A stretch of DNA of 64,000 nt. Origin: Dehalococcoidia bacterium (GTDB taxonomy: Bacteria; Chloroflexota; Dehalococcoidia; Lucifugimonadales; UBA3495). The notes beneath the pieces are model-generated. The model was given only the letters and a program-made list of their open reading frames with translations, did no database searches and was not told the DNA's origin. Of this stretch, positions 6,547 to 58,712 are shown one piece after another. The translations under genes and the position numbers were made by a program. The stretch is from NCBI GenBank assembly GCA_965237745.1, contig OZ250156.1, positions 1,953,426 through 2,017,425 of the forward strand, in the 5' to 3' direction. How positions within the stretch are numbered: position 1 is the stretch's first letter; every line of letters starts with the position of its first letter.

Positions 6547-8298
6547 CTAATTGTCTACCACTTTCCAGTTCTCCCAGGGCGGACCATAGAACTCCATCTG
6601 GGGATTGGCGAAGATTTCCTTGCCTTCGCCCCACTGGTCGCGGTTGGCGATGCGCGGGCCGATGGCGTTGATAAAGCTGAACCAATAGATGGGAATTTTG
6701 TAGAATCCTGCGGACAGTTTATCTTGGGCGTCAGCCGCTAATCGTTCGCGCTCGTCAGGGTCAACCGACGCCTCGTATTGCGATATTACACCGTCGATTT
6801 CAGGGTCGCACATTCGGGAAGAGGCGGCCTCGCACCCGACATAGGCGTTGAAGCGGGCAACGAAAGCGCCGGTGGTTCCGGTGCCGATCAGCAGTATCTG
6901 AGTCTCCCCTCCCCATGCATCATTGCGCTCTTGGTAAGTATCTCCTTCCGCCAACCGGTCGAAGTAAGTGCCACGCTCCATGGTCTGCAACTTGGCGTTT
7001 ATGCCGATGCGACGGATCTGGCTTATAACCCTCTCACCCAGGCTGAAGTAGTTGGGAATGGGGCTGAGCCATTCAACGTCGAACCCATCCGGGTGACCGG
7101 CCTCGGCCATCAATTGCTTGGCCCTGTCCAAGTCCTCCTCAGGCGCTTCGAGGGGGGGCGCCAAAAGGATGTTGGGCGGAATCCAGTAGTTGGCGGGCTT
7201 GGCGTGTCCTCCGGTCTCCGCGTCGCTGATGGCCTGCCGGTCCAGGGCCAGGCCCACCGCTTCGCGCACCCGGGCATCGTTGAAGGGATTGTCAGGGTTG
7301 TGCATATGGGGGAATTCCAGCCAGAAAACGGAGGTGGTCAGCGTCGGAACCAAGAGCAGGTCGGGATTATCAACCACGCGCTCTATCAGCTCCCCCGCTA
7401 CGTTGTACATCACGTCCACGTCTCCGGCTTCGATGAGAGCCAGACGTGTGGTTGGTTCCTGCACCGACCGCATGGTGAATTCCTTCACATGCACCGGCCG
7501 GTGGTAGTCCTCAAAAGCCTCAAACCTCAGACTGTCGCCCGGTAGTTCTTCGAGCAACTTGAAGGGACCGGCGCCCACCGGCGCCTGGATAAATCCCTCA
7601 TTTCCGACTTCCTGATAATAATCCGCCGGCACGACAAATCCGGCGCCGGTGGAAAAAGTGCCGTAGAGCAACAGGAAGTCCAAGAAGGGCGCGTTGAAAT
7701 TGAAGCGGATGGTGCTGGGGTCAATGACGTCAACGCCCGCAGTGCTTGCTTGAAACACGTCTGCTTGGGCGCCACTGTAGTTCTCGAAGGTGAACTTCAC
7801 GTCCTCGGTCGTGACCGGCTCTCCGTTGTGGAATGAGGTACCGGGTCGCATCTGGAACGTGATGCTCGAGAAGTCCTCGGCCCACTCCCAACTCTCAGCC
7901 AGACTGGGCGTATTGAGAGCCTGGGGCATTATCTTCACCACTGCATCGTGCAGCGCGTAGGCGAAGTTGTAGGGAGTTGCCATCGCCGGGTTGTCCTGGG
8001 GGTCCAGCCAACTGGATGACAGGCCGGCGTGCCACGCAAGGCTCATCTCGCCTGAAGCAACCACGCTGGCCTGAGCCGGGGTCGGGGCGGAAGTTGGCGC
8101 GGCGGCAGGCGTGGGAGCCTGGGGATTGGTTGCGGTGACCGGTGCCGGAGCCTCAGTGGCGGCCGGCGCCGGGGCAGACGTGGCGGGGGCCTCCGGCGCA
8201 GTGGTGGCGGCTTCGCCACAACCGACGGCCGTTAAAAGAGCTAGCGCCAAGGCAGTAACCAGAAACAACGCAGGTTTTCGAAGCCGGCTCCATACCAT
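6547..8298 (-). CDS. ABC transporter substrate-binding lipoprotein, family 5 (peptide/nickel type)
   Basis: Signal peptide plus lipobox (LLTAVGCGEA), Ala/Pro/Thr-rich linker, then a family-5 SBP-like body. Start set at MVWSRLRK (8298) rather than the track start at 8355. Confidence 0.85.
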   Translation of the reverse strand: MVWSRLRKPALFLVTALALALLTAVGCGEAATTAPEAPATSAPAPAATEAPAPVTATNPQAPTPAAAPTSAPTPAQASVVASGEMSLAWHAGLSSSWLDPQDNPAMATPYNFAYALHDAVVKIMPQALNTPSLAESWEWAEDFSSITFQMRPGTSFHNGEPVTTEDVKFTFENYSGAQADVFQASTAGVDVIDPSTIRFNFNAPFLDFLLLYGTFSTGAGFVVPADYYQEVGNEGFIQAPVGAGPFKLLEELPGDSLRFEAFEDYHRPVHVKEFTMRSVQEPTTRLALIEAGDVDVMYNVAGELIERVVDNPDLLLVPTLTTSVFWLEFPHMHNPDNPFNDARVREAVGLALDRQAISDAETGGHAKPANYWIPPNILLAPPLEAPEEDLDRAKQLMAEAGHPDGFDVEWLSPIPNYFSLGERVISQIRRIGINAKLQTMERGTYFDRLAEGDTYQERNDAWGGETQILLIGTGTTGAFVARFNAYVGCEAASSRMCDPEIDGVISQYEASVDPDERERLAADAQDKLSAGFYKIPIYWFSFINAIGPRIANRDQWGEGKEIFANPQMEFYGPPWENWKVVDN

Positions 8299-8651
8299 GC
8301 TGGACCTCCAATGGGGTGGAGAATAACCGCAGGCGACACGAGAGCGAATCGACAATTGCCAACCCCCAATGACTGAGGAGACCAGATACAGCGCCGAGAA
8401 AAAATGGATGCTTCTTAGGTCTTGCCTGGTGGATGACCTGCCTCAAACATCTGGAGGGCGTGAGAGAGGGTCGAGTCTTGTCAATTTGACTGCCGTTCCC
8501 GGAATCTACGCGAGTCCGACGCGGCTCACTCCCGAACTCGGGCAAACCCGTACGGTGCCATTCCCTCGGTGATGTTCCAGATCCTTCCTGCGCCGGCCCG
8601 GCTGCCGTTCCATTGCGCCGGTCCGTGATTTTGGCTTAAAGTGGGGTCGCG

Positions 8652-9686
8652 ATGCAGACCGAGCGGTGGCAATTCGGTGATTGGGAAGATGCTCTGGAAT
8701 TCTATTTCCGGGAGGGTCTGACTGACGGGTTGCCTGTCGTTCCGCCCACTCCGGAACGGGTTCAGGCCCTGTTGGACTACTGCGGACTGGCCCCGGAGGA
8801 TATCTTGGGAACCGAGGGCATCCGGCACAAGCGGTTCCCCGCTGGGAAAGTGGCGGTCAGCGCGGTGATGGCCGGCTGCCTGCCGGAGCATTTCCCGGTG
8901 GTCGTGGCGGCGGTGTCCGCGGTCTGCGACCGCACCTACAACTTCCACGCCAGCAGCACGTCAACCAACGGGATCGCCAACCTTGTGCTGGTCAGCGGTC
9001 CCTACGCCTCCCGCATCGGCATGAATCAGGGGGTCAACCTCTTCGGCAACGGGAACCGGGCCAACGCCGCCATCGGCAGGGCCGTCAATCTGATCAAGGC
9101 CAACTTTTACGGCTCGATTTCTCAGGAAATGGACAAGAGCACTTTCGGACACTCCGGAAAGTACAGCTTTTGCTTCGCGGAGGACCTGGAAACGAGCCCT
9201 TGGCCCTCTCTGGCCGAAGTGAAGGGTTTTCGCCGGGACGCCAGTGTGGTCACAATGGTTGCCGCCAACGCTCCGTTGCAATTGGAAACCCACGGCGACC
9301 GGGACCCAGAGGGCTTCCTCACCGCAGCCGCCCACGCGATGTTGGGGTTCGGGCCAAGGCTATCGGAAGTTGTGCTGGTGATCAGCCAAGAGTTGATGGC
9401 ATACGTGGCGGCCTCCGGCTGGAACCGCTCCCAAGTGGCCGAATTCCTTGATGAAAAGACCAAGCGGCCTGCGGGCGAGTGGGATCTGTGGCGGCGCATT
9501 GACAGACTTCCGCCGGACGCGGACCGCGAATTGTTAATGGGTTGCGTTGCCGGCCCTGACCGGATAACCGTCGTCCCGGCGGGCGGCGACGCCGGGGAAT
9601 TCATGGCGCTCATTACGTCTTGGGGAAGCAGCCGTTCCGTAACCAAGGAAATAGCGGTACCCCGCCAGGAGGTGGACGACGCATGA
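8652..9686 (+). CDS. conserved hypothetical protein (partner of the UGSC selenoprotein gene)
   Basis: 344-aa ORF with coding-like composition (GLTDGLPVVPPTPERV...). Its TGA overlaps the downstream ATG (ATGA at 9683-9686). No family recognised. Confidence 0.6.
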   Translation: MQTERWQFGDWEDALEFYFREGLTDGLPVVPPTPERVQALLDYCGLAPEDILGTEGIRHKRFPAGKVAVSAVMAGCLPEHFPVVVAAVSAVCDRTYNFHASSTSTNGIANLVLVSGPYASRIGMNQGVNLFGNGNRANAAIGRAVNLIKANFYGSISQEMDKSTFGHSGKYSFCFAEDLETSPWPSLAEVKGFRRDASVVTMVAANAPLQLETHGDRDPEGFLTAAAHAMLGFGPRLSEVVLVISQELMAYVAASGWNRSQVAEFLDEKTKRPAGEWDLWRRIDRLPPDADRELLMGCVAGPDRITVVPAGGDAGEFMALITSWGSSRSVTKEIAVPRQEVDDA

Positions 9687-10213
9687 CAAGCATCTACACT
9701 CTCGACCCCAGGGACACGGCAGAGACGTCGCCGGCGGCGCTGGCCATTCGTCCGGCCAGCCTTGACGGCAAGACGCTTGGCCTGCTTTCCAACAACAAGC
9801 CCCACTCCGAGGAGTTGCTGCGGATGGTGGCCGGTATAGTCGGCCAGCGCTACTCTCTGGCGGAGGTTGTGGAATACAACAAGGGAGGCCACCAGTGGCC
9901 TGCCGATCGTTCCGCCCTGGAGGACCTTGCCCGCCGTTGCGATGTGATGATTCACGCCACCGCGGAATGAGGGTCCTGCACGTCGTGCAGTGTGCATGAC
10001 GCGATGGAGATGGAGCTGTTGGGAGTGGCCTCCACAGTACTGACGACTAGGCCCTTCGTCACCCAGGCCCGGGCAATGGCCCGACTGCGCGGCGACGCCG
10101 ACTACGGACTTGCCGTTATCGACCACCCGATCGTCACGCTGACCCCAGAGGAGTTGGCGGTCCGAGCCACAGTCGCCGCCCCACAGGCGATACGTCATTT
10201 GTTGGACAGGTAA
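9683..10213 (+). CDS. UGSC-family selenoprotein candidate (in-frame TGA at 9968-9970 read as Sec)
   Basis: Track ORFs 9620-9970 and 9992-10213 are in the same frame, separated only by the TGA and six sense codons. Read-through gives ...HATAE-U-GSCTSCSVHD...; the U-G-S-C motif matches the family name as I recall it. A hairpin lies directly 3' of the TGA. Confidence 0.65.
9973..10000 (+). promoter_or_regulatory. candidate bacterial SECIS hairpin
   Basis: gtcctgcac (9973-9981) pairs with gtgcatgac (9992-10000) with one mismatch and a 10-nt loop GUCGUGCAGU. An alternative perfect 6-bp stem is ctgcac/gtgcag (9976-9990). The structure starts 3 nt after the UGA. Confidence 0.45.
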
Positions 10214-10294
10214 CCCGGGGCAGGGACGCGTATTTTGTCAACGGCCATGTCCCTCGCTTGGTCGACAATGGTATCTGATGTTGATGCCTGTAGA

Positions 10295-10378
10295 GTTGAC
10301 GGGATTCGGGTGGACTGACGCTTCACCACCGGGGACGCCCGCATCAAGCTCAAGTCTCTCTACCCATCAATACAATAG
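10295..10378 (+). pseudogene. IS630-family transposase C-terminal remnant
   Basis: VDGIRVD*RFTTGDARIKLKSLYPSIQ* resembles the ...DW.FTT.DARIKLK.LYP C-terminal tail of IS630-type transposases. The expected W codon is TGA. Confidence 0.45.
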
Positions 10379-10513
10379 CGACCGGCTGCCAGTAGACCAA
10401 CTGCTTTGAAATGATGGATTAACATCCTCACCCCTCACATGGGGCCAAAACTGCTGAAGCAGCCTCGGGGAACAAGGATTGTTCCGGCTACTCATCATTT
10501 CAAAGATTTCGAA

Positions 10514-11664
10514 CTACAAAACTAAAGCCAAGGTGGGATGTGCATCTGGCTGGTGGTGGGAATCTGGATGGGGGTTACGCAGGAGCCCCTCTGCTCTTGA
10601 TTGCAGGACTGTACGGCACCGGCGTTTCACCTCTTCTTTCCATCCGGCCAGCGCGGCGAGGAAGTTCCCGACCCTCTCTTGCACCCGAGACTTGGTTCCC
10701 AGGCACAGGTTTCCGGTGGCTTCCTCTCTCGCCCAGCCCCAGACCGCCTCATCGGCGTTGAAGTCCGGACTGTAACCCGGCAGGTTCATCAGCCTCAGGG
10801 CCAAGCCCGGTGTCCGCAGATATTCACGCACCGCCTCCCCGCGGTGGGCCGGCGCGTTGTTCCAGATCACGCCCAGCGGCCCGGAGTGCCTCTGCCGCAA
10901 CCGCTCCAGGAAGGCAGCCGAGGTTCCGGGGTTGCTGTTGCCTTCCAGCTCCATCCACTCCACCTCCCCGGTCTCCAGACACACTGCCGAGTAATAGCTG
11001 GCCTTTTCGCCATAGCTCGGACTGGTCGAATCCACCAAAGCCTGCCCTCCCCGCAGCACCCACTTGCCCCGCAGTTCGGCATCGGCCCGGAAGTGCGCCT
11101 CGTCGGCAAAGAATATCTTCGCTCCCGTACGCCGCGCCTCGTCCGACAGGGTGGCGTACTCCGCCACGAAGGCCTCCCGCTTGGCCTCATCCGCCTTGAT
11201 CAAGCGCTTCTTGAGACGCCTCAGGACGAATCCCAAGCGGTGCAGATAGTTCAAACAACTGCTGCGGCTCAACTCGATGCCGAACCGTTCCGAGACGAAC
11301 TGCCGAACTCCCCTCCAATACCAGTTGGCCAGTTCGATGCCCGCCTGCTCCGGCAACTCCTGCACCGCTGCCTTCAACTCCGCCTGTTGCGTCTCGCCAA
11401 GGGCGGGGGGGGAACCCCGGTCTGCTCGAATATCAAGGCTGCAGGCCCTCCCTCGCCGAAGGCGGCCAGCCAACGGCCAATGGTGTGGGGATCCCGTTCC
11501 AACGCCTCCGCCGTGGACGAGGCGGTCCAGCCCTGTGCCAGCAGCAGCATGGCGTACCACCGCTCCCGTCCCCTGGGCGTTGGCGCCAGAATCGTCTGGC
11601 GGCGCAAGGCCTTGGCATCCATCTGCCATTGTTCCAGAAACTGGTCCATCTCCCTCACGCCCAT
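10514..11664 (-). CDS. IS630-family transposase (two frames joined by a -1 shift on a C8 run)
   Basis: Upstream frame: HTH region (WYAMLLLAQGWTASSTAEALERDPHTIGRWLAAFGEGGPAAL). Downstream frame: DDE region (FFADEAHF...IWNNAPAHR...LPGYSPDFNADEAVW). The frames meet at the G8/C8 run 11405-11412. The stop codon uses the flanking TA. Confidence 0.8.
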
Positions 11665-11758
11665 CACCAACCCCCCGCTATTCCCAAGACCAGCTAACCC
11701 AGTTCTCCCCACAAATTTACCTTATGACTCTGCGCTTTTCACCTTGGCTTTAGTTTAG
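10517..11758 (-). mobile_element. IS630-family insertion sequence, flanked by TA/TA
   Basis: Terminal inverted repeats aaactaaagccaaggtg (10519-10535) and caccttggctttagttt (11740-11756). TA at 10515-10516 and 11759-11760. Encodes an HTH + DDE transposase. Confidence 0.85.
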
Positions 11759-11760
11759 TA

Positions 11761-13160
11761 CTACAGTTGCAGATTAACGATGTAGAATATGCCATCACAT
11801 GATGATGAGGTGAGGTGGTGGCAGGGCACGGTGATGAGGTAGCGGAAGTGACGCGGTGGGCCGAGGGCATTGAGCAGGTGCACGAGTGCATCGGGGGAAG
11901 GTTCCGGCGGCCGGAGCCGCGCCGCCGGGTGCTGGACTATCTGCGGGGACTGCTCAGTCCGGTGGAACGCAAGAATGGCTGGCAACTGGCGGAGCAGGCG
12001 GGCGACGCCACTCCCGACGGGGTGCAGCGCCTGCTGTCCACCTACGTCTGGGACGCGGATCTGGTGCGCGACGATCTGACGGGTTACGTGGTGGAGCATC
12101 TGGCCGACGCTGAGGCAGTTCTGGTGGTGGACGAAACCGGCTTTCTTAAGAAGGGAGACAAGTCGGTTGGGGTGCAGCGTCAGTACAGCGGCACTGCGGG
12201 GCGGATCGAGAACTCTCAGATTGGGGTATTCTTGGCCTATGCCGCTTCCCGAGGGAGGACGCTGCTGGACCGGGAGTTGTACCTGCCCCAGGTCTGGGCG
12301 GAGGACTGGGAACGTCGGCGGGAGGCCGGGGTGCCTGAGGATGTTTCCTTTCGAACCAAGCCGCAACTGGCGCAGTTGATGCTGGAGCGGGCGGTGGAAT
12401 CGGGAGTCCCCTTCGGCTGGGTTGCCGGAGATGAGGTCTACGGCAATGACCGCAACCTGCGGCTGTGGCTGGAGCGTGAGGGGCTGTCCCATGTGCTGGC
12501 CATCAAACGCAGCGAGAAGCTGTGGGCATTGACGGAAAAGGGTCCTCGTCAGGTAAGAGCCGATCGGCTGGCATCGCAGGTTGAGGAAACTGGCTGGGTG
12601 CGGTGCAGCTCGGGCGACGGGGCCAAGGGGCCGAGGGTGTACGATTGGGCTACCGTGGAGCTAAGGCCCCTCAAAGAGCCTGGCAAGGGCTATTGGCTGC
12701 TGTTCCGACGCAGTCTGTCCGACCCCGGGGAACTGGCCTACTATGTCTGTTACGGCTTGGCGGGAACAGCCCTGAAGGAACTGGCAAGGGTCGCCGGGAC
12801 CCGTTGGGCCATTGAGGAATGCTTTGAGGAGGCCAAGGGACAGGTGGGACTGGACCAGTACGAGGTGCGGAGGTGGGATGGCTGGTACCGGCACATCACC
12901 CTGGCGATGCTGGCGCAGGCGTATTTGACCGTGATCAGGCAACAAGCGCTGGAACAGGGAGAAAAGGGGGGCACTACGGTCCCGATGAAGAGCTGATACC
13001 CTTGACGGTTCCGGAGCTGCGCCGGCTGCTCACCCGCCTGGTATGGACGGAAACCCAACCGCCTGATTCCATCCTGTACTGGTCGTGGTGGAGACGGCGC
13101 CACCAAGCCCGGGCCCAGCGTTGCCACTACAAACGCCGCCTGTCCAATCTGCGGCTGTAG
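11761..13160 (+). mobile_element. IS701-family insertion sequence
   Basis: Inverted repeats ctacagttgcagatt (11761-11775) and aatctgcggctgtag (13146-13160). TA on both flanks. The complementarity may extend 3-5 bp further out, so ends are +/-5 bp. Confidence 0.75.
11815..12996 (+). CDS. IS701-family DDE transposase
   Basis: 393-aa ORF: RFRRPEPRRRVLDYLRGLLSPVERKNGWQLAEQAG...LVVDETGFLKKG...VQRQYSGTAGRIENSQIGVFLAY...VAGDEVYG, typical of IS701/ISAzo13-like transposases. Confidence 0.85.
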   Translation: MVAGHGDEVAEVTRWAEGIEQVHECIGGRFRRPEPRRRVLDYLRGLLSPVERKNGWQLAEQAGDATPDGVQRLLSTYVWDADLVRDDLTGYVVEHLADAEAVLVVDETGFLKKGDKSVGVQRQYSGTAGRIENSQIGVFLAYAASRGRTLLDRELYLPQVWAEDWERRREAGVPEDVSFRTKPQLAQLMLERAVESGVPFGWVAGDEVYGNDRNLRLWLEREGLSHVLAIKRSEKLWALTEKGPRQVRADRLASQVEETGWVRCSSGDGAKGPRVYDWATVELRPLKEPGKGYWLLFRRSLSDPGELAYYVCYGLAGTALKELARVAGTRWAIEECFEEAKGQVGLDQYEVRRWDGWYRHITLAMLAQAYLTVIRQQALEQGEKGGTTVPMKS

Positions 13161-13191
13161 TACTAGGGAGTGTCGTCAAAATAATAACCTG

Positions 13192-14022
13192 ATGGTACAT
13201 TGCTGTGGAGAGTGTGAGGGAGTGGGGTTGGGGTATGACAGCAGCGCATCGAGGGCACGACCTTTCGGACAAGGTATGGAACGCTTGCAGCCTCTGTTGC
13301 CTGGAGGAGCAGGCCAAAGGGGTCGCCCGGCCAGGGACAATCGACTGTTTGTGAACGCGGTGTGTTGGATACTGCGGACTGGGGCGCCTTGGCGTGACCT
13401 GCCGCCGGACTACGGGGACTGGAAGAACACCCATCGCCGCTTCTGCCGCTGGCGGGACCGGGGCGAGTGGGCCAAGCTGCTGGAAGCGGTGCTGGATGAC
13501 CCGGATCTCGAATGGCTGATGATTGACGCCATCTACATCAAGGCCCATCCTCACAGTGCCGGCGCCCGGGGGGAGCCAAGCCATCGCCCGCACAAAAGGG
13601 GGCTGAACAGCAAGCTGCACCTGGCGGTGGACTCCCGGTGGACTCCGGTCCCGGTGGACTCCCGGTGGACTCCCGGTAAGGCTGGCGGTTACTGGAGGCC
13701 CGGTGGCCGATGCTCCTTGGCGTTGCCCCTGATCGAGGGTATAGCAGCGGAGTGTCTGTTGGCGGACAAAGCCTATGACACCAATGAAATCATAGCCACC
13801 GCCCGGGAATCGGGAATGAACCCGGTGATACCGCCCAAAAGCAACCGGAGGGAAAAGCGGGACTATGACCGGGCGCTGTACAAGTTGCGGCACTTGGTGG
13901 AGAACGGGTTCTTGGAATTCAAGCAGTGGCGCGGGGTGGCGACCCGTTACGCCAAAAGGACGGCATCATACTTGGCCGCCTGCCAACTCCGGGCAGTGAT
14001 GATCTGGAGCAAACTCTTTTGA
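13192..14022 (+). pseudogene. IS5-family transposase, probably defective
   Basis: Conserved blocks GRPARDNRLFVNAVCWILRTGAPWRDLP, LADKAYDTNEII and GFLEFKQWRGVATRYAKR. The expected N-terminal LSDKVW+ERLQPLLP is split between frames (apparent 1-nt loss near 13276). An 11-nt repeat expansion sits at 13627-13675. Confidence 0.7.
13627..13675 (+). repeat. tandem ~11-nt repeat (gtggactcccg, about 4 copies) inside the IS5 transposase gene
   Basis: gtggactcccg gtggactccg gtcccg gtggactcccg gtggactcccg read directly. Translates as VDSRWTPVPVDSRWTP, unlike the usual LHLAVDxxGxPV block. Confidence 0.8.
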
Positions 14023-14033
14023 CGACACTCCCT

Positions 14034-14698
14034 TACGTTCCCGGTCACGTCGACCGGCTCGCTGAAGGTGAAGGTGAAGGTGAACTCGATTTTGTCGTCC
14101 TGCCCATAGGTGTCGTTCGCCGCTGGGGTGGAACTCACTGCCACGTCGAGGGCCGCGGGCTGGCCCTCGACCTTGGCGTAGTGGTGATAGCCGCCGGTGT
14201 ATGTCTTTGAGGCGAGTACCTCGTGTTTGTATGTTTCACTGGCGTTGTCGCCAATCTAGGTTTCGATGGTGCTGCCGGTGAGCCCGGTGGCCCCATCGCT
14301 GTCGTCGATGGTGATCCCGTTCCAGTCGGTGTCCGTCTCCAGCACGGTGTAGACGAAGGTGAGTTTCGTTGTCTTCCAGAACTGGTGCTCCACCACGTTG
14401 GTCATGATGCGGGCTTGGCGGAAGTTGCCGTCGCCGCTTCCTATCCGGAAATCAACCTCCAAGACGTCGCTCACGATATGTACATTCTTATCGTAGGTCA
14501 CGTCTATGTGGATCTGTTCGCCCGCCGGTAGGCCAGGCCGTCGGTGGGCGGCCGGGGTGCCACGCTCTCGATTTCGGCCGGTTCGGTGGTGATGGCGCTG
14601 GCTGGTTCTGCGAGCATGAGAAATAGCGCGGCGACCCCGAGGGTTATCAATATGAGTGCTGTCAGACGGCGGGGAATTGCTGGTGCTGCTGTTTTCAT
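14034..14698 (-). pseudogene. secreted repeat-domain protein, disrupted (frameshift, nonsense codon, truncated by IS5)
   Basis: Signal peptide MKTAAPAIPRRLTALILITLGVAALFLMLAEPASA, then a TAG at 14504-14506 with the reading frame continuing 2 nt out of phase (GEQIHIDVTYDKNVHIV...). An in-frame TAG lies at 14256-14258. The frame runs straight into the IS5 right end at 14033. Confidence 0.65.
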
Positions 14699-15719
14699 GG
14701 TGTGCCTGTCCCTTGGTTCTGGGATTGGATTCCGGAAAATGCCAATGGCCGACAGTTTGCCGTTTGACCCGATTCCTTCCTCGCTTTGGTGCTGTCCTTC
14801 ACGTGCTGTTCAGCAGGTCGGCACCCTTGGGTCATTCTTCGCGGTCCATACAATCCGCGCTGAAAGCTGCAACAGGTGCCTGTTCGCCAGTTTGGAAACC
14901 TGGGACTAACAAAGACCTGCGGCGGGTTAATCTCTATTCGCCATCCACAGGGTGATGTGGCCCCGTTTTCCTGATGTCGGCACCGGCGGTAATGCAAATG
15001 GTATGGCGCTATCGGAAGACTGGACCGAATTCGCACCAGAGCTGGGTGAATGCGTCCGTGTATCCGGCACGGTATGTGATGCCCTCACCTGAAGGTTGCA
15101 GTTGCTGTCACCTATACGCCAATGTTCTCAGCCGAATGGAACGGCGAGGTCAAGAGGAGAAGCGTGCTGGTGGTGCCTGCAACATCTGTGTGGTCAGAGA
15201 GGTTCACAACGCCGTTGTGGCCGGGTCCCGTTATTCAAAACGGACCATCCACTGCGATGAATTTACATAATTGCCCATTGGAGGATTGTTGCGTGAAGAT
15301 TGGCATGTACGGCCCCTGTTTGCATTGATGAATCTTCACATCTACAACTCCTCACTGGCTGCTGCTAACTCAATGGTACTATAACCGCACTGCCAATACC
15401 ACCGCCGCATAACTGAAGCCGGCAGTACCCATTCAATCCCACATTGTCAGATATTCAATAAGCCAAGCTTGGATACTACCTTTGTGTAATGAAATGGTGT
15501 GAAGAGACTATGTTGTGGGAGGTGGGTGGGTTCAGGGTGCAGGAAAAATTCGCTGTTCGGTTAGACGCCGGGGTGAAGGGGCGGGTCAGGCAGATGATAA
15601 GAGCTGGCAGTCAGTCATACCAGAAATGGCAGTTGCTGAAAAACAAGTCTCAGGGGACTGTGAACGGAACTGACTGTCACTCGTGAAAATCATCCTGCCA
15701 TTTCAAACGCGACTGACTA

Positions 15720-20932: not shown

Positions 20933-22054
20933 ATGCAAGCACAGGATGCACCGGCCCATCCGTCGGCGCGCACCTCAATGGCACCGGTGGTCGCTGTAGT
21001 GTCGACCACGCCCGAGACGGTGCGGGATGATATAGCCCGCGCCATGGAGCTCGCTGAGGCCGACGAGTTTCTGAACCCGGGAAACCGCACGCTGCTGAAG
21101 GTCAACATATCATGGCAGCACTGGTACCCTGGATGCTCGTCCACTCCTTGGCAGATAGAGGGAGTCGCCAACGCTCTCAGGGCTATGGGCCATGCCGATT
21201 TGGTGGCGGCCCACAACGGCACAGTGGTAGTGGATTCCTATGAGGGCGAGGAGAATAACAAGCACAAAGCGGCCCAGGACCGGGCGAACCTGCCCGCCAT
21301 CCACTTGGACAGCCCTCCCAACCGCTGGATTGACTACAAGCCTCGCGCCGAAATGCTGGCCTTGGACGACATATTCCCCGAGGGGATCCAGATTCCTGAG
21401 TGTTTTCCAGGGACAAACATAGTCCATCTGCCCACGATGAAGACCCATGTGTTCACCACGATGACCGGGGCGATGAAGAATGCATTCGGGGGCCTGCTCC
21501 ATCGCAAGAGGCACTGGACGCATTCAGTCATCCACGAAACGCTGGTGGACCTGCTGGCGATCCAACAGGAGATTCACCCCGGCCTGTTCGCGGTGATGGA
21601 CGGCACCTTCGCCGGAGATGGTCCTGGCCCCCGGGCCATGCGCTGGCACGTCAAGAACCGCATCCTAGCCAGTGCCGACCAAGTGGCCATCGACGCTGTG
21701 GCTGCCAAGATGATGGGCTTCGATCCAATGAGCATACCCTTCATAAGGCTGGCGCACGAACGCGGCCTGGGATGCGGCGAGGTCGCGGACATCGAGGTCC
21801 GGGGCGAGGACATCAGCGGGGTTAACTGGCAGTTCTCGGGCGTCGAAAACACCTTTGCCAGCCGAGGGCAGAAGCTCATCTATTGGGGGCCGCTCAAGCC
21901 TCTGGAGAATATGCTGCTGCGCAGTCCCATCGTCGGCTGGGCTTTCCTGGCTTCCAACCTGTATCACAACGGCTACTGGCTCAAGACCAAGGGCCGACGC
22001 CGCATCGTAGCAGCCCTCAAAACCGAATGGGGCCGCCTGTTCCAGTCTTACTAG
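20933..22054 (+). CDS. DUF362 domain-containing protein
   Basis: LLKVNISW..., HLPTMKTHVFTTMTGAMKNAFG, FAVMDGTFAGDGPGP, ILASADQVAIDAVAAKMMGFDP. Start possibly at MAPVV (20978). Confidence 0.75.
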   Translation: MQAQDAPAHPSARTSMAPVVAVVSTTPETVRDDIARAMELAEADEFLNPGNRTLLKVNISWQHWYPGCSSTPWQIEGVANALRAMGHADLVAAHNGTVVVDSYEGEENNKHKAAQDRANLPAIHLDSPPNRWIDYKPRAEMLALDDIFPEGIQIPECFPGTNIVHLPTMKTHVFTTMTGAMKNAFGGLLHRKRHWTHSVIHETLVDLLAIQQEIHPGLFAVMDGTFAGDGPGPRAMRWHVKNRILASADQVAIDAVAAKMMGFDPMSIPFIRLAHERGLGCGEVADIEVRGEDISGVNWQFSGVENTFASRGQKLIYWGPLKPLENMLLRSPIVGWAFLASNLYHNGYWLKTKGRRRIVAALKTEWGRLFQSY

Positions 22055-22074
22055 GGCCGGACGGAGGGGACGAA

Positions 22075-23391
22075 ATGCCGATTAGCAAATTCCGAATCAC
22101 CAACGCCGGGCCATTCGACGACATCACTTTCGAGTTCGATGAGCAGGTCAACGTCTTCGTCGGCCCAAACAACTCCGGCAAGTCCACTGCTCTGCTGGCG
22201 TTGGCGACAGCCTCCGTGCATCCGTTCCAGTTTCCGTGGAAGCTGTTTAACAAGTCGCCTTTTGAAGCTAAATGCGAGATAACGGTACATTGTGGTAATC
22301 AAGAAACTCAAACCGAATTGTACTTAGCTCAACCAGTCGTGGACTATCAAAGATCAATTGAGTTCCTAAGTGCAATAGGATTTTCGACTTTCATCCCATC
22401 TATTCGCAGAAGCACAGAATATAGGGCGGAAATTCCTGAAGTCGAGTCTATGGCACAGTTGATAGCCCAGATATTTTCCTCGTCTGAAGCTCAAGAATTC
22501 ACAAATCTCAATGAATTTCAGAAAAGGTCGTTGATCACCCAAACCGACGCTAATCTAGTGAGCGACGAGTCGATCATCCAGAGGATGGTTGAGCTTGACT
22601 TCCTTGCTTACTTCCGGAGACGACCGCAGATAAAAGATTCCATTGAATTGATAGCCAGTATCGCCTCTGAAATCACTGAGGGGTATCCAATCGAATTTCT
22701 GGGTATTGGGGGAGAAGCTAAAAGTAGGTTCCCGGAATTTCGCACCCCTGATGGGAGGCTCCCTCTAAATACGCTGAGCCAAGGAACGCAATCAATCATC
22801 CAATGGCTTGCACACTTGGTGTTTGGCTACGCTCAATATAATGACTACCCGGAAGACTTGGCGGAGAAGCCTGGCATCCTTATCGTGGACGAAATTGACG
22901 CTCACCTGCACCCGTCCTGGCAGAGGCGGATTATCCCGGCGCTGACCGACAACTTCCCCAACCTGCAAATCTTCTGCTCCACTCACTCCCCTCTGATGCT
23001 GTCGGGGCTGAAAGAGGGTCAAGTGCAGTTGCTCAAACGGGGAGAGGACGGCAAGGTAGAGGCTTCCACGAACCACTGGGACATGGTGGGGTGGTCGGCG
23101 GAGGAAATTTTGAGGAGCGTTCTGGGGGTGCCGGATACGATGGATCTGACCACTGCCTCCGAGATGGACCGTATGGGAGAGTTGAGCATTAAGGAAACGC
23201 TTACTGAAGCGGAGAAAGCTGAGTTGGAGAAGCTTCAGCAGAAGGTGGTCGAAGCACTAGGAAGCGGCCCTGCATCCTCCAAGGCGGAGTTAGCTCTACG
23301 CCACATCAAACAAATCTACTCGGAAGCCCTTTCGGAATCCCCAGGAAAACCTCGGCCAAGAGTAAGAAGAAAAGAAAGCGGGTCTGCTTAA
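22075..23391 (+). CDS. ABC/SMC-like AAA ATPase (AAA_15/AAA_21 type; PtuA-like)
   Basis: Walker A VGPNNSGKSTALLAL, signature-like LSQGTQS, Walker B/H-loop ILIVDEIDAHLHPSWQ, THSPLML. Start at MPISKF (22075) with a GGAGGGGA RBS, not the track start at 21883. Confidence 0.8.
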   Translation: MPISKFRITNAGPFDDITFEFDEQVNVFVGPNNSGKSTALLALATASVHPFQFPWKLFNKSPFEAKCEITVHCGNQETQTELYLAQPVVDYQRSIEFLSAIGFSTFIPSIRRSTEYRAEIPEVESMAQLIAQIFSSSEAQEFTNLNEFQKRSLITQTDANLVSDESIIQRMVELDFLAYFRRRPQIKDSIELIASIASEITEGYPIEFLGIGGEAKSRFPEFRTPDGRLPLNTLSQGTQSIIQWLAHLVFGYAQYNDYPEDLAEKPGILIVDEIDAHLHPSWQRRIIPALTDNFPNLQIFCSTHSPLMLSGLKEGQVQLLKRGEDGKVEASTNHWDMVGWSAEEILRSVLGVPDTMDLTTASEMDRMGELSIKETLTEAEKAELEKLQQKVVEALGSGPASSKAELALRHIKQIYSEALSESPGKPRPRVRRKESGSA

Positions 23392-23394
23392 ACA

Positions 23395-24041
23395 ATGCAC
23401 TGGGTTGATCGAGGGCCTGAACCGGCTGGATTGAGAACCATACATTTACAATTCAGTCAGGGTTGGGTAGACCATTATCAGCACGGCATCGGAAACAGAC
23501 CATCAGACACGAGATGGCGCGACTTTCACAATGTCTTGAGTCTGACATTTTCTCTATTATGCGCCTACTGTGAAGAAATAACCGAGGGTGAAGTGGACCA
23601 CTTTAAGCCAATTAGCAAGTTTCCGAACTTGGTTTACGAATGGTCTAATTGGATATTCGCGTGTCATTACTGTAACCTTAGCAAGTCAAACAAATGGCCA
23701 CTGAGTGGCTATGTTAGCCCATGCGAAGAAGACATATCAGAGCGCCCGGAGAATTTTTCGCTTTCAATATGGAAACAGAGCAATTAGAACCAAAGGCGAA
23801 TATCTCTGAAAATAAACGAGAAAAAGCGAATCAGATGATACGGGACTTAAAGCTCAATGCTCCTCATCATCTCCGGAAGCGAATAGACAGGCTGTATCTT
23901 GTTAGACTTAACTTAGACAACTTAACCCAAGATTCCGAAGAAGAACAGGAATATATGGACAGAATAGTTAACCGTAACTCTGAATTGTCCAGCATCACAC
24001 GGGTGTTGCTCGCGGAACTTGGCTTTACTATAGACGACTAA
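23395..24041 (+). CDS. HNH nuclease (TIGR02646/PtuB-like), reading frame split at a T5 run
   Basis: LCAYCEEITEGEVDHFKPISKF...WSNWIFACHYCNLSKSNKWP is a complete HNH signature. The C-terminal part (FFAFNMETEQLEP...MIRDLKLNAP.HLRKRI) continues in the -1 frame after ttttt at 23754-23758. Confidence 0.7.
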
Positions 24042-24089
24042 CCGGCAATTCCAACGCACCTCACTCACAATAACAACAAGGATAACTGA

Positions 24090-25166
24090 ATGGACATCGC
24101 TATCATTGGCCTGCCTCTCAGCGGCAAGACAAGTACTTTCAACGCACTCACCGCCGGACATGGGGCGGCCACTGGGGGGGGAAGCACAGGCCCAGTGCAG
24201 GTCGGCGTGGTCAAGGTCACCGATAGCCGGCTCCCGGTTCTGGAAAAGATGTACCTCCCCAGGAAGGTGGTCTATGCCGAGATGAAGTTCTGGGACCTGC
24301 CTCCCGCTGACCGCGTGCAACGCGGCCAGACACTGGCCGGGCGGCATCGCAACATCCTGCAGGGGGCCGGGTCCCTGCTGCTGGTGGTGCGGGCCTTCGA
24401 CGATGAGTTGCAGGGAGTTGCTGATCCCGCCGGAGATCTGGCTGCCATGCTGAACGAGCTGGCCCTGGCTGATCTGGAAACTCTGGAGCGCGTCGAGACC
24501 CGGTTGTCCGACTCTCTCAAGAAGTCCAAACCAGCCGAGCGACCGGCCCTGGTGCCCCAGGCCAACGCAGTCCACAAGTGCCGCGAAGCGCTGGAAGCAG
24601 GAGTCCGGGTGCGGCAACAGGAGCTGACGGCCTCGGAGCGGTCGGCCATTGTTGACTATCAGCTGCTGACCGATAAGCCGGTCATCGTCGCTTTCAACAC
24701 TGACGAATCCGGCAAGGCCCCGGACTTGGAGTCCTTGGACCTTTCACCGGAAATGACCGGCGGGCTGGGGGCGGTCCAGCTATGCGCGAGGCTGGAGGAG
24801 GACTTGGCACTAATGACGGAGGACGAAGCTGAAGAGTTCCGCGACGCCCTGGGACTGAGCGAGTCGGTCATCCAACGAGTCAAGCAGGTCTGCTATGACA
24901 CGGTGGGCCTTGTCTCGTTCCTGACAGTGGGCGATGATGAGGTGCGGGCCTGGCCAGTGCTCGACGGCATTCCGGCACTGGATGCTGCAGGAACGATACA
25001 CACAGATTTCACACGGGGGTTCATACGCGCCGAGGTTATACACTTCGACGACCTGGTGCGATGCGGCAGCGTGGCGCAGGGTCGCAAGGAGGGTGTGCTG
25101 CGCTCCGAAGGCAAGACCTACGGGGTGAAGGATGGCGACGTAATCAATTTCCTGATTAACGTCTAG
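24090..25166 (+). CDS. ychF: redox-regulated ribosome-binding ATPase YchF
   Basis: G1 IIGLPLSGKTSTFNAL. C-terminal DUF933/TGS-like RAWPVLDGIPALDAAGTIHTDFTRGFIRAEV...EGKTYGVKDGDVINF. Confidence 0.85.
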   Translation: MDIAIIGLPLSGKTSTFNALTAGHGAATGGGSTGPVQVGVVKVTDSRLPVLEKMYLPRKVVYAEMKFWDLPPADRVQRGQTLAGRHRNILQGAGSLLLVVRAFDDELQGVADPAGDLAAMLNELALADLETLERVETRLSDSLKKSKPAERPALVPQANAVHKCREALEAGVRVRQQELTASERSAIVDYQLLTDKPVIVAFNTDESGKAPDLESLDLSPEMTGGLGAVQLCARLEEDLALMTEDEAEEFRDALGLSESVIQRVKQVCYDTVGLVSFLTVGDDEVRAWPVLDGIPALDAAGTIHTDFTRGFIRAEVIHFDDLVRCGSVAQGRKEGVLRSEGKTYGVKDGDVINFLINV

Positions 25167-28478: not shown

Positions 28479-29348
28479 TGTGCCCTCCTATCTTCCTCGC
28501 CGGCCCCGCTGTTGTTCCTGAACGGCCCATTGCCGGATCTGGCGCGCGGTCAGTCGAGTTGCAGGTTTGTCCAATACTCGGTTATGGAAACATTAGTTCG
28601 GAATACCGGGCGGCGCAAGTGGCAAATGTCATCAATTTTCGGCGCTGCCAGGTCAACTCTCCGGTAGATACGCGGCTCAGCGGGTCCCATTTGCGGTGGG
28701 AGCTTCGACGCAACGCTGGAGCAGACCGGGAGGGGACTTGAACTCTTCGTTCGACTCTTTTGTTGGTCAACGGATATGGGGCGCTGGCATTTCGCCCAAC
28801 TGCACTCTTCTTTGAGAGACGGGAGTTAGATTCGAGTTACCAAAAAACTTGATATTCCCACCATTTCCCACCATTTCCAATCATTTTGCGAAATTCGTTG
28901 TACGGCTGGATTGGAGTAACTCACCTGAAACCTTTGCAGTTTGGGTACCAGGGCAATCGCATCTCAAAGCCTGGATTGACCTCTGGACCAAGGGTGGCAC
29001 TTGGGTTGTGGTTTCAGGGAATCGAGCGCTATCCGTACCTTAGCGTTTCCCGTCCGTGGAGGCTCTGGATTACCGCTTCCGCGGTAATGACGGGGAATTG
29101 TCCGGTGATTCCTCATTGACTCGAGCCTGCATCCGTTAAAACGCGATTGCTCTGGTTGGCCTACCACATGGAAGCTCGAGTAGTACATGAATCATGAATA
29201 TGGTAGGGACGTGTCATGGGGCTTGGCAAGGAGCAAGTGTCAGCAATCTTTGCAGTTGAAGGCCTTTCCGAGAGGAGTGGGTGGCCCCGAGAGCAGGGCC
29301 ACATGGGACGGGGTCGCCGGATGGGCTAAATGGGAACGCCGCCGGGAA

Positions 29349-30167
29349 TCAGGCAGGCGAAACGCTGACCCGCATCAGGTCGTGGGCGGTGCTGATGGGC
29401 CCGGTGTAGTGGTGCGCGGCGTCTTGGAGGAGAGGGTCCTGGTTCTCGTGGAAGGCGTTGTCTATGTGAGTGATGATCAGTTGCTTCACCGATGCTTGGT
29501 CCGCGACGCGGGCGGCGTCGCCTGAGGTGGAATGGAGGCGACCGGCTGCCATGGCGTGGACTTCATCGGTGGCCAGCGCCTCGTGAATCAGCAGGTCGGC
29601 GCCCTGAGCGGCTTCCGCCAAGCTCCTGCTGTACTTGGTATCGCCGGAGAATACCACCGACACGCCGCCAGACTCGATTCGCCAGCCGACCGAGCCGGGG
29701 ATATGGTCGACGTCAAAGGACCAGGCTACAGTGTTGGGCCCGAGTTCGAGCCTGTGGCCCCGGGGGACTTCCTGCCAGCGCATGACCTGCCTGCCGCCGT
29801 GGATGTGGGCGGCGCCATCGCGAATGTCGGGAACTTTGCCAGCCACCGCTGCTTTTCGCAGCCCCTCCAGCGCCGAGGAACTGCCATATATGGAGAGGGG
29901 GTTTTCGTCGCGAGTCTCATGGGAGCGGCGGCCCTGTACGAACATCAGGCCCGACAGGTGGTCCTGGTGGTCGTGGGACAGCAATACATGGTCGTATTCC
30001 AAGGCCTTGATGCCGGATATTTCGCCGTTGCGCAGGGCCGAATTGCCGGAGCTGCCGTCCAGCAGCAGCGTAGTACCGTCGGGGCAGCGTAGGGCGATGG
30101 CGGTGTGGGCACGGGTGACCGAGAGTCCGGCTCCGGTGCCCAGAAAGATTATCTCCAAGTTATTCAT
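29349..30167 (-). CDS. MBL-fold metallo-hydrolase (paralog 2)
   Basis: HDHQDH metal motif, GTGAG N-terminus, VVFSGDTKYS, ADLLIHEA. ATGA overlap with the upstream paralog. Confidence 0.8.
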   Translation of the reverse strand: MNNLEIIFLGTGAGLSVTRAHTAIALRCPDGTTLLLDGSSGNSALRNGEISGIKALEYDHVLLSHDHQDHLSGLMFVQGRRSHETRDENPLSIYGSSSALEGLRKAAVAGKVPDIRDGAAHIHGGRQVMRWQEVPRGHRLELGPNTVAWSFDVDHIPGSVGWRIESGGVSVVFSGDTKYSRSLAEAAQGADLLIHEALATDEVHAMAAGRLHSTSGDAARVADQASVKQLIITHIDNAFHENQDPLLQDAAHHYTGPISTAHDLMRVSVSPA

Positions 30168-30970
30168 CCCAGCGTAATCTGCATACAGTCGTGGGCCATG
30201 GTGATGGGGCCGGCGTAGAACTGGGCGGCCTCCACGCCGAGGGGCTCCGGGTTGGCGTGGTAGGCATCGGTGAGGTGGGTCAGGACCATGCTGGCGACCC
30301 TGGCCTCGGCGGCGGCCTGTCCCGCCTCACCGCCGGTGCAGTGGCCGGCGCTGCTGGCCAAGACGGAATCGGCAACGCAGAAGGCCTCGTGTATCAGCAG
30401 GTCAGCACCTTCCGCTGCCTTCACAACCTCTGGGCTATAGCGGGTGTCGCCGGAAAAGACCACCGACTTGCCGTCGCACTCCACACGCCAGCCCGAGGCC
30501 CCCGTGATGTGGTCGGCCTCGAAATGCCAGGCTGTGGTCCTTGGCCCCAGTTCAATCACGCGACCGTGGTCGGCGGGCTTCCAGTGCAGCAGCTCGCGGC
30601 CCTCATAGTTGCGTCCGAAGTCGCCGGAGATGTCCCGGATATTCAGGCGGGTGGTTATGGAGTGCCGCTTCAATCCCTCCAGCGTTTCGTAGGAGGCGTG
30701 CACCCTGATTGGTCCGAGGTTGGCTCCGGACAACGCGCGGTCGAACTGGATGAAGTCTATGCCGCCCATGTGGTCGGGGTGGTCGTGGGACAGCAGGACA
30801 TCGTCGAATTCGCGCAGGTTTATGCCCACCGCCGCGGCGTGGCGGAGCGCAGAGTTGCCGGAACTGGTGTCGAGCAGCAGCTTCGTGCCGTCGGGGCACT
30901 CAAGGGCCATGCCGGTATGCGCCCGCAGGGTCGAGCTACCGGCGCCCGTGCCTAGAAAGGTTATTTTCAT
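30164..30970 (-). CDS. MBL-fold metallo-hydrolase (paralog 1)
   Basis: HDHPDH, VVFSGDTRYS, ADLLIHEA. Clearly paralogous to 29349-30167. Confidence 0.8.
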   Translation of the reverse strand: MKITFLGTGAGSSTLRAHTGMALECPDGTKLLLDTSSGNSALRHAAAVGINLREFDDVLLSHDHPDHMGGIDFIQFDRALSGANLGPIRVHASYETLEGLKRHSITTRLNIRDISGDFGRNYEGRELLHWKPADHGRVIELGPRTTAWHFEADHITGASGWRVECDGKSVVFSGDTRYSPEVVKAAEGADLLIHEAFCVADSVLASSAGHCTGGEAGQAAAEARVASMVLTHLTDAYHANPEPLGVEAAQFYAGPITMAHDCMQITLG

Positions 30971-38226: not shown

Positions 38227-38301
38227 GGGGCGTAAGCCGGACGCTTCTACCTGCTAATGTATAATGCGGCCACCGTAGCCCGCCGCTGCCGAGGTGCCGC
38301 A

Positions 38302-41104: not shown

Positions 41105-41461
41105 GTGGGATTGACCGAAGTGCAAGCCACAATAATCGGAAGCCAAGAGACGAGAGAGTACACCTTTGTGGTCGATACGGGCGCCACTTACTTGGGGCTG
41201 CCAGATGAGGAAATTGAGTCCCTCGGACTCCAACCGAGCACAGGAATCATAAGAGTAGTGACCGTGACGGGCGTCGTAGCACTGAATTCCTACTTTGCCG
41301 TCGGTGAACTAAATGGCGAGCGATTTGGAGCCATGCTGATTCCTACGGCTGAACCACTGCTTGGGTACGAACTGCTGCAGAACTTGAGGTACAAGGTTAA
41401 TCCGGTAAGCCACGAAATCGAGAAGGTTTCAGACGACGAAAGGCACCCTCCATTTCTCTAG
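41105..41461 (+). CDS. retropepsin-like (clan AA) aspartic protease, copy 1
   Basis: 118 aa; active-site-like FVVDTGATYLGLP; small single-domain size typical of prokaryotic retropepsin homologues. Confidence 0.65.
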   Translation: MGLTEVQATIIGSQETREYTFVVDTGATYLGLPDEEIESLGLQPSTGIIRVVTVTGVVALNSYFAVGELNGERFGAMLIPTAEPLLGYELLQNLRYKVNPVSHEIEKVSDDERHPPFL

Positions 41462-41497
41462 GCGATGAGCGTAGAACGGAATTCAAGGAGCATCTAA

Positions 41498-41857
41498 ATG
41501 GGAGTGGCCGTCGTGCAGGCCAAGGTCTTTGGTGAACTGGAGACCCGTGAGTACAGTTTCTTGGTTGATACCGGGGCCACTTTCCTCGCCCTTCCTAAGG
41601 AAGAAATCGAATCCTTGGGCCTGAGGAGGGCTAGAGGCACTGTCAGACTGATGAGCGCCACAGGAATGGTGAATGTTGAGACCTACTTCGCCGAAGGAGA
41701 GCTTATGGGGCAAGAGTTCGGCGCAATTTTGGTGCCCTCAGCTACCCCACTACTTGGGTACGAACTGCTGCAGAACTTGAGATTCAAAGTAAATCCGGTC
41801 ACGCACGAAATCGAGAAGGTTTCAGACGACGAAAGGCATCCTCCATTTCTCTTGTAA
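41498..41857 (+). CDS. retropepsin-like (clan AA) aspartic protease, copy 2
   Basis: 119 aa; FLVDTGATFLALP. The 3' ~108 nt are nearly identical to copy 1. Confidence 0.65.
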   Translation: MGVAVVQAKVFGELETREYSFLVDTGATFLALPKEEIESLGLRRARGTVRLMSATGMVNVETYFAEGELMGQEFGAILVPSATPLLGYELLQNLRFKVNPVTHEIEKVSDDERHPPFLL

Positions 41858-58280: not shown

Positions 58281-58281
58281 C

Positions 58282-58614: not shown

Positions 58615-58712
58615 TACCGCCAATAATCGGACATTGGAATGAAACCTAAACAGGCAACCATGGCAGATGCGGTGGCCGCAGCTAAACAACGACGAACGGC
58701 GAGGAAGTAGTG

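Follow-up and report, generated by a model that had tools for sequence, protein, structure and literature searches.

A 64,000-nucleotide (64-kb) stretch of a Dehalococcoidia bacterium contig (OZ250156.1, positions 1,953,426 to 2,017,425), referred to below as the window and numbered from its first letter, carries two adjacent genes, ptuA and ptuB, which an earlier note on this DNA had read as an ATPase and an HNH nuclease of the Septu/PtuAB kind. All features of the locus lie on the plus strand. To the left is a DUF362-family gene (20933–22054; Pfam DUF362, 1.3e-21) and to the right a ychF-like GTPase gene (24090–25166; Pfam YchF-GTPase_C, 5.8e-31), and the pair fills the whole gap between them, with spacers of 20 nucleotides (nt) before ptuA and 48 nt after ptuB. 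The ptuA gene (22075–23391, stop codon 23389–23391) is intact and encodes an ABC/SMC-like ATPase of 438 amino acids (aa), with a Shine-Dalgarno-like GGAGG (22063–22067), read from the sequence, 7 nt upstream of its ATG. After a 3-nt spacer the co-oriented ptuB gene begins with the ATG at 23395. As sequenced, it consists of a 5′ part encoding 130 aa (23395–23787) and a 3′ part in the -1 frame (23759–24041, within an open reading frame (ORF) listed from the ATG at 23721), the latter encoding a helical C-terminal domain. The ORF coordinates and the ATPase and HNH motifs were located as the earlier note had stated.

Features of PtuA and PtuB

More than 20 PADLOC PtuA models match the product of ORF 22075–23391 (best 1.1e-45), and the Pfam matches to AAA_21 (1.6e-23, 84.6 bits against a cut-off of 27) and AAA_15 (4.4e-21, 76.4 bits against 32.1) are likewise well placed. 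The top sequence match of PtuA in the PDB is the stand-alone E. coli PtuA (8ee4_A, 3.8e-25). An AlphaFold (AF2) model of PtuA with 56 homologues reached a mean predicted local distance difference test score (pLDDT) of 75.4 and a predicted template-modelling score (pTM) of 0.71, and in a Foldseek comparison against the PDB all 50 of the 50 matches listed were PtuA chains (E 3e-20 to 6e-15).

The nucleotide-binding motifs are all present in PtuA, each at least 97% conserved among 116 homologues, and the window protein deviates from the 90% consensus of this set at only four positions, all of them conservatively. Walker A, GPNNSGKST, covers residues 30–38 (K36; 22162–22188), the ABC signature LSQG residues 234–237 (22774–22785) and the combined Walker B and D-loop, ILIVDEID, residues 268–275 (D272, E273 and D275; 22876–22899). 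The signature and the H-loop histidine, H304 in the motif THSP (22984–22986), are invariant in a 56-sequence alignment. The earlier note had picked out this Walker A, the LSQG signature and a long variable insert between the ATPase halves, and all three are present, the two motifs being conserved; it had placed the H-loop in an 'AHLHP' stretch, and here it has to be corrected in favour of H304.

Column entropy, identity among alleles and the guanine-plus-cytosine content at third codon positions (GC3) together delimit a hypervariable part of the insert at residues 61–160 (22255–22554). In the 116 homologues, the entropy is 2.1–3.0 bits per column in the insert versus 0.3–0.7 bits in the ATPase core. 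By virtue of this variability, the insert is a candidate surface for sensing or discriminating phage cues. At the other end of the protein, a C-terminal extension (residues 358–420; 23146–23334) is predicted in the AF2 model to form three helices (358–372, 378–395 and 401–420), and by analogy with solved complexes this extension is the expected docking site for PtuB.

The first ptuB ORF matches PADLOC PtuB (2.5e-17) over profile positions 2–124 of 216 and Pfam HNH (2.4e-8, 34.5 bits against a cut-off of 21.4), and the second, 23721–24041, takes up the profiles where the first leaves off, matching positions 110–197 of 209 in PADLOC PtuB PDLC00324, 108–188 of 198 in HNH_I-A and 124–201 of 218 in NCBIfam PtuB. 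The HNH/zinc motif (23560–23676), which the earlier note had recognised just downstream of the ATPase gene, comprises C56-x2-C59, D68-H69, N85 and C93-N94, all invariant in eight PtuB alleles. When PtuB is repaired to a single frame, its match in the PDB is Ec78 PtuB (4.9e-7), with H69 aligned to Ec78 H57, and the H57A mutant of Ec78 PtuB has lost its toxicity (PMC12819146). The PADLOC matches to both proteins and the Pfam matches to AAA_21, AAA_15 and HNH, all above their cut-offs, thus agree with the families that the earlier note had named.

Assignment of the pair and state of the ptuB copy

The features found here are those of type I Septu: PtuA and PtuB hidden Markov model (HMM) matches, adjacent co-oriented genes, the catalytic residues (PtuA K36, D272, E273 and H304; PtuB H69, N85 and N94 with the zinc ligands C56, C59 and C93) and the PtuA fold. 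The marks of a type I-A retron (Septu type II), namely an adjacent reverse transcriptase or msr-msd non-coding RNA (ncRNA) and an N-terminal extension of PtuA, were not found. Beside ptuAB there is no reverse transcriptase ORF, nor space for one or for an ncRNA, and no third gene; no Rfam family reached the gathering threshold anywhere in the 64-kb window. The PtuA N-terminus aligns residue 2 to residue 2 of stand-alone E. coli PtuA, whereas the same segment starts only at about residue 73 in the 550-aa retron-type PtuA, the N-terminal extension of which binds the reverse transcriptase and the ncRNA (PMC12819146). The lack of a reverse transcriptase, an ncRNA, a third gene and a retron-type extension therefore identifies the pair as stand-alone, and we assign a probability of roughly 0.88 to its being an ordinary stand-alone (type I) Septu anti-phage system made up of a PtuA ATPase together with a PtuB HNH nuclease. 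As such, it is an added example of an already known system type and not a new type. The earlier note's Septu/PtuAB-like reading is hence backed by defence HMMs, PDB sequence matches and PtuA fold matches; it had also seen no reverse transcriptase, methylase or third gene, which holds in a gap filled by the pair and free of Rfam matches, and the choice it had left open, canonical Septu or a divergent module, is resolved as canonical stand-alone Septu.

Other identities for the pair would each account for part of these matches. If it were the effector of a type I-A retron such as Ec78/Eco7 or Ec83/Eco4, under the control of a reverse transcriptase and multicopy single-stranded DNA (msDNA), the PADLOC ATPase_I-A (3e-38) and HNH_I-A matches, the rank of the retron PtuA and PtuB models as top NCBIfam matches and the match of PtuB to retron PtuB chains in the PDB would follow naturally, but the DUF362–ychF gap has no room for a reverse transcriptase or ncRNA, Rfam is silent in the window, the 438-aa PtuA is without the approximately 65-residue N-terminal extension of retron PtuA, and PADLOC PtuA models outscore the retron ATPase model, so that we give this explanation next to no weight. 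A different module joining an ABC ATPase to a nuclease (PARIS, Gabija/OLD, MADS, an AbiEii-like system or type IV restriction with an ATPase) is very unlikely: the weaker matches that speak for it, to AriA (5e-24), mREase_IV (7e-9), MADS3 (1e-8) and TIGR04435 (2e-12), the 'AbiEii' label of AAA_21 and the OLD and AriA chains among weak PDB matches, reflect the shared ABC core only and are at least 20 orders of magnitude weaker than those to PtuA, while the partner is a PtuB-family HNH protein with neither a methylase nor an extra gene beside it. Gabija GajA, OLD and PARIS AriAB do share the ABC ATPase core and the principle of an ATPase restraining or directing a nuclease, but the nuclease of those systems is a TOPRIM domain, fused or separate, in place of the HNH protein found here; neither protein of the pair has a TOPRIM match in Pfam or PADLOC, and sequence matches of the GajA/OLD/AriAB type do not extend beyond the Walker B region (E 1e-4 to 2e-5). 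A housekeeping function, with PtuA as an SMC/RecF-like repair ATPase, PtuB as its accessory nuclease and the locus conserved for a cellular role, is hardly credible either. Synteny and purifying selection across at least eight related contigs, together with weak SMC_N and RecF matches, speak for it, but the pair is missing from the same junction in the next relatives, has a foreign codon composition, contains hypervariable segments swapped by recombination between contigs with near-identical flanks, recurs as a homologous pair at another position in another genome, and finds by far its best matches among defence-specific HMMs. The earlier note had held that conservation at the locus together with host-like composition would point to a housekeeping role; the pair is conserved at this place within the close clade, and its composition is not that of the host. 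Non-host composition, absence in the next relatives and hypervariability argue for defence rather than housekeeping.

The split of ptuB concerns the state of this copy, not the identity of the locus. At 23754–23758, the window has a run of five T (T5), where L001, a contig with flanks approximately 99% identical to the window, has T6 and the contigs L088 and L089 have TTTCTT, which makes this run the site of a one-base deletion. The 5′ ORF encodes native PtuB up to about residue 120–121, followed by out-of-frame residues. Insertion of one T yields a 215-aa ORF with a single different residue in 215 relative to L001 PtuB, and apart from the missing T the two genes are separated by four substitutions, three synonymous and one non-synonymous. 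An intact PtuB ORF of 214–215 aa is present in each of the eight relative contigs spanning the complete gene (L001, L002, L004/L006, L088, L089, L090 and L091, plus L007 in another context); a further contig, L003, is cut off within ptuB. The frame changes after the HNH domain and ahead of the helical C-terminal domain, the part of PtuB that two PtuA C-terminal extensions clamp in solved complexes (PMC12819146). If real, the deletion separates the HNH domain from the docking domain and should uncouple the nuclease from PtuA.

With no other decay around it, a lone homopolymer indel indicates an error of assembly or else a lesion of very recent date; in the first case (a homopolymer sequencing error) the system is intact, and in the second this Septu copy is inactive. 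That the locus is a relic, with a truncated HNH protein that cannot dock and a copy that no longer defends, we regard as plausible but somewhat the weaker side of the balance. The T5 run set against T6 or TTTCTT in every relative, the premature stop nine codons after the break and the position of the frameshift ahead of the domain held by PtuA speak for it, whereas the few changes elsewhere in ptuB show no further decay, ptuA is intact with its conserved residues all kept, and a single-base indel in a homopolymer is a typical assembly error. It is highly improbable that the split gene is functional by design, through ribosomal -1 or transcriptional slippage on the T run. Although the exact wild-type ...ENFFAFNM... 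would result if tRNA-Phe slipped by -1 in the P site on TTTTT, every relative has one uninterrupted ORF, L088 and L089 lack the homopolymer altogether, T5 is short for efficient slippage and has neither a canonical X XXY YYZ heptamer nor an obvious stimulator beside it, and a trace leak is the most that could be expected. The earlier note did not mention a split HNH gene in its text, but its phrase 'repaired operon' implies that the break had been noticed.

Database gene calls for PtuB in two relatives are also short, 85 aa in L002 (9327–9974) and 84 aa in L091 (6318–6962), where the ORFs are intact at 215 and 214 aa, respectively. Gene callers seem to mis-start in such low-GC inserts, so that automated finders could fail to see Septu.

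Several points weigh against the assignment as stand-alone Septu. Overall, the proteins share only about 18–21% identity with their characterised E. coli counterparts. The NCBIfam equivalog models of PtuA and PtuB, both derived from retron Ec78, were the best NCBIfam matches but fell far below their cut-offs (130 versus 500 bits for PtuA and 28 versus 150 bits for PtuB), and TIGR02646, named in the earlier note, was under its cut-off on either ptuB fragment. As sequenced, ptuB occupies two frames instead of one ORF, and automated calling that requires an intact PtuB could overlook the system. A plus-strand scan for promoters and terminators around the pair gave no promoter-like site or terminator, and we infer ptuAB expression only from the dense packing of the genes and their shared direction. 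Among the Septu and retron PtuAB systems studied, the nuclease substrate is not the same (DNA or tRNA), and we know of no phage of this uncultured lineage.

The junction and the window in related genomes

GC content drops from approximately 0.61 in the flanks to 0.40–0.51 within 22200–24000. GC3 is 0.583 in ptuA (z = -4.1) and 0.468 in ptuB (z = -6.8), compared with 0.756 ± 0.043 in 34 host genes, and changes in blocks along the pair, from 0.78 in the first 180 nt of ptuA to 0.447 in the insert (nt 181–750), 0.66 in the 3′ part of the gene and 0.47 in ptuB; the same block pattern recurs in other alleles. Both the windowed GC and GC3 confirm the observation in the earlier note that much of 22250–24060 is richer in AT than its flanks.

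A scan of a genome collection gave two loci only, and the breadth of the comparison comes from a scan of metagenome contigs in which the DUF362 protein served as the query (80 loci). In ten loci (L008–L013 and L015–L018), ychF follows DUF362 directly, at a distance of 21–152 nt and with no insert, and the DUF362 and YchF proteins of these loci are 78–88% and 58–67% identical, respectively, to those of the window; an eleventh relative locus, L014, ends inside ychF. A PtuA gene was found downstream of DUF362 in none of the 80 loci of the metagenome scan, and a 49% identical PtuAB pair lies in an unrelated neighbourhood of another genome (L007 being a contig where the pair has another context). 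Taken together, the empty junctions in relatives, the foreign GC3 and the occurrence of the pair elsewhere indicate that it was inserted at the DUF362–ychF junction. A repeat search at the edges revealed neither direct nor inverted repeats flanking the pair, as would be expected of a transposon, an integron or an att site, and no integrase is found at the edges of the pair. Plasmid and phage collections contained only distant relatives, with less than 40% identity over the Walker B region, and no donor element. Exact look-ups of the window PtuA, and of P0066 and P0044, returned no record.

The Septu insertion is old, not recent, as purifying selection has kept it at this site in at least eight related contigs. 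The gene order DUF362-ptuA-ptuB-ychF is found in L001, L088, L089 and L090, with flanks 97–100% identical to the window, and again in L002/L003, L004/L006 (the same contig, titled under L004 as a Dehalococcoidia metagenome-assembled genome (MAG)) and L091, where YchF is about 83–85% identical where measured. Relative to L002 and L004, non-synonymous divergence (dN) is 0.03–0.11 for the flanking genes, 0.13–0.28 for PtuA and 0.31–0.36 for PtuB, and its ratio to synonymous divergence (dN/dS) is 0.03–0.09 for the flanking genes and 0.13–0.21 for PtuA; for PtuB it is 0.18 against L004, dS being saturated against L002. The PtuA and PtuB proteins thus evolve faster than the flanks, yet are still constrained. 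The acquisition that the earlier note had suggested is accordingly upheld by the foreign composition and the empty junctions, though it dates back further than a recent arrival.

Among the contigs with near-identical flanks, the pair is a mosaic. Divergence from the window begins at about 21979–21997, so that the left edge of the polymorphic tract lies in the last 60–75 nt of the DUF362 gene (from about 21979), and high identity returns at about 24060, just past the ptuB stop. Over 14 kb, 143 of the 295 differences between the window and L001 fall within 22000–23200 (binomial P = 9e-72), and dS against L001 is 0.32 in ptuA versus 0.025 in the flanks and in ptuB. L088 and L089, which come from two different samples and are 99–100% identical over their shared sequence, match the window at 97–100% in the flanks and again from about 22960 on, versus 42–58% across 22230–22620. 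L090 matches it at 97–100% in the flanks, 97–99% in the ATPase core (22919–23100) and 45–62% in the insert, and is only about 60% identical at 23109–24060, a segment that spans the PtuA C-terminal extension and all of ptuB and there resembles the L004 allele. The hypervariable part of the insert (22255–22554) is only 42–59% identical to L088 and L090. Across alleles, the identity of the PtuA extension and that of PtuB track each other, and this joint switching of extension and PtuB is what a binding interface would predict. The modelled three-helix extension is consistent with the published nine-helix bundle, formed by two PtuA extensions and three PtuB helices (PMC12819146).

A tentative interpretation, to which we give slightly less than even odds, is that the junction holds a fixed Septu locus kept as a modular, recombining polymorphism in which the insert module (about 21980–22900) and the module of C-terminal extension plus PtuB (about 23110–24060) are exchanged independently. 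Homology arms would then be provided by the 3′ end of DUF362, the conserved ATPase core and the 5′ end of ychF, and neither an integrase nor repeats would be involved.

Three further observations concern the same neighbourhood. The 5′ end of the window DUF362 gene (20933–21152) is 68–76% identical to L090, the rest of the gene being 98–100% identical, which looks like a second recombination tract at the UbiA–DUF362 junction. In L005, a distant Dehalococcoidia MAG whose DUF362 is 74% identical, two different PtuAB pairs stand in tandem after DUF362 (6822–12375), and a 26-residue fossil of the DUF362 C-terminus lies between the two cassettes (about 10181–10261; tblastn match 10172–10258). This fossil suggests that cassettes travel between genomes with a piece of DUF362 and, as a hint from a single case, that one cassette arrived with such a piece and recombined in front of the resident one. 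In the otherwise empty spacer of L009 (3264–3333), again a single case, there is a second in-frame copy of the DUF362 end, GELFQSY followed by the stop, which may be what a lost insert left behind, or else a small duplication.

We also considered the position downstream of DUF362 as a general defence hotspot, and apart from L005 this is not supported by the 44 neighbours found there in distant relatives. A few of these match the PADLOC mad3, AriA or PD-T4-6 models. The ATPase matches are ordinary ABC-F or ABC-transporter ATPases by Pfam and hence cross-hits, and the PD-T4-6 matches are presumably kinases.

Pfam and PADLOC searches of unannotated ORFs at 13–16 kb and elsewhere in the window gave no second defence system nearby, so the pair does not lie within a defence island. 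On the minus strand, a HicA toxin gene (58053–58328; Pfam 5.9e-14) overlaps a HicB-like antitoxin gene (58282–58782; 6.9e-8), and this pair, with a GC content of about 0.52 versus 0.60 for the window, is probably another acquired module. Just past polA (38257–41061), two tandem small ORFs of retropepsin-like Asp_protease_2 type occupy 41105–41857 (plus strand; GC 0.52–0.53). Between a comM-like gene and two genes of the metallo-beta-lactamase fold, a stretch of 870 nt (28479–29348) with a GC dip to about 0.50 has no convincing ORF and no Rfam match, and the corresponding spacer measures only about 260 nt in L002. The two metallo-beta-lactamase-fold genes are in tandem (29349–30970, minus strand), and one has a sub-threshold match to Apyc1 (Anti-Pycsar; 21.7 bits, cut-off 50) that probably reflects the shared fold only. 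In a comparison of window positions 13030–15600 with L001 (1–1529), synteny breaks at about 15599, where the window carries small ORFs, five or six in number and none of them matched in Pfam or PADLOC, and L001 has DDE transposase fragments and a patatin gene. Finally, L006 carries two DndB-like genes (11004–13308) between DUF3090 and comM that are absent from the window.

Proposed mode of action and significance

The closest parallel is the stand-alone E. coli Septu (PDB 8EE4, 8EE7, 8EEA and 8SUX), which is likewise a two-gene operon of ATPase and then HNH nuclease without a PtuA N-terminal extension. Its PtuA is the best PDB sequence match noted above and gives fold matches with template-modelling scores of 0.5–0.65. 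Both systems have a PtuA C-terminal extension of three helices and a PtuB whose C-terminal domain is helical, and their PtuA proteins are of comparable length (438 aa here versus 465 aa). They differ in that overall identity is low, the insert is unrelated in sequence, ptuB is frameshifted here, and the signature motif reads LSQGT here versus LSDGL in E. coli PtuA. The Walker A and B residues and the HNH histidine and asparagine are essential in the Septu systems studied, and all are present; the essential residues of Septu Ec-B88, for instance, have counterparts in PtuA K36 and D272 and PtuB H69 and N85 (PMC13096335). Ec-B88 cuts tRNA-Tyr in its variable loop upon T6 infection (PMC13096335). 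PtuAB of type I-A retrons (Ec78/Eco7 and Ec83/Eco4) shares the homologous ATPase core and HNH protein, with the catalytic histidine aligned, but the reverse transcriptase, ncRNA, msDNA and PtuA N-terminal extension of these retrons have no equivalent here, which implies a different mode of control.

According to published work, E. coli Septu forms a complex of six PtuA and two PtuB subunits in which the nuclease is inhibited by ATP binding and activated on infection. DNA is then nicked and/or tRNA-Tyr is cleaved at its variable loop, and growth arrest follows. Oligomerisation, nuclease inhibition by ATP and protection against phage are known from the systems of E. coli and Bacillus alone. By analogy, the window proteins may assemble as a PtuA oligomer with the same 6:2 stoichiometry, in which paired PtuA C-terminal extensions would clamp the PtuB C-terminal domain and ATP binding would hold the nuclease quiet. 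Phage infection, perceived as a phage protein cue together with falling ATP, would release or activate PtuB, and the infected cell would be arrested and phage production blocked. As to its history, the pair entered the DUF362–ychF junction in an ancestor of a Dehalococcoidia clade, has since been retained by purifying selection and is reshuffled among strains through recombination.

The locus is a further Septu system from an uncultured lineage of Chloroflexota the defence systems of which have hardly been studied. Beyond the assignment itself, the analysis contributes the frameshift caveat, the empty-site evidence for insertion and the modular allelic mosaic. Because PtuB gene calls are split or shortened in several low-GC inserts, automated defence finders may undercount such loci. 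The contigs also amount to a natural set of 'domain-swap' alleles for stand-alone Septu, on backgrounds that are otherwise near-identical, and these point to a freely varying part of PtuA, the insert, and to jointly changing parts, the C-terminal extension and PtuB, the joint change being in agreement with the solved interface. The allele set thereby yields hypotheses on phage specificity in Septu, which is not yet defined: if the modular exchange is real and driven by phage, the insert would be the specificity determinant of stand-alone Septu, and the C-terminal extension together with PtuB would form a co-evolving interface cassette.

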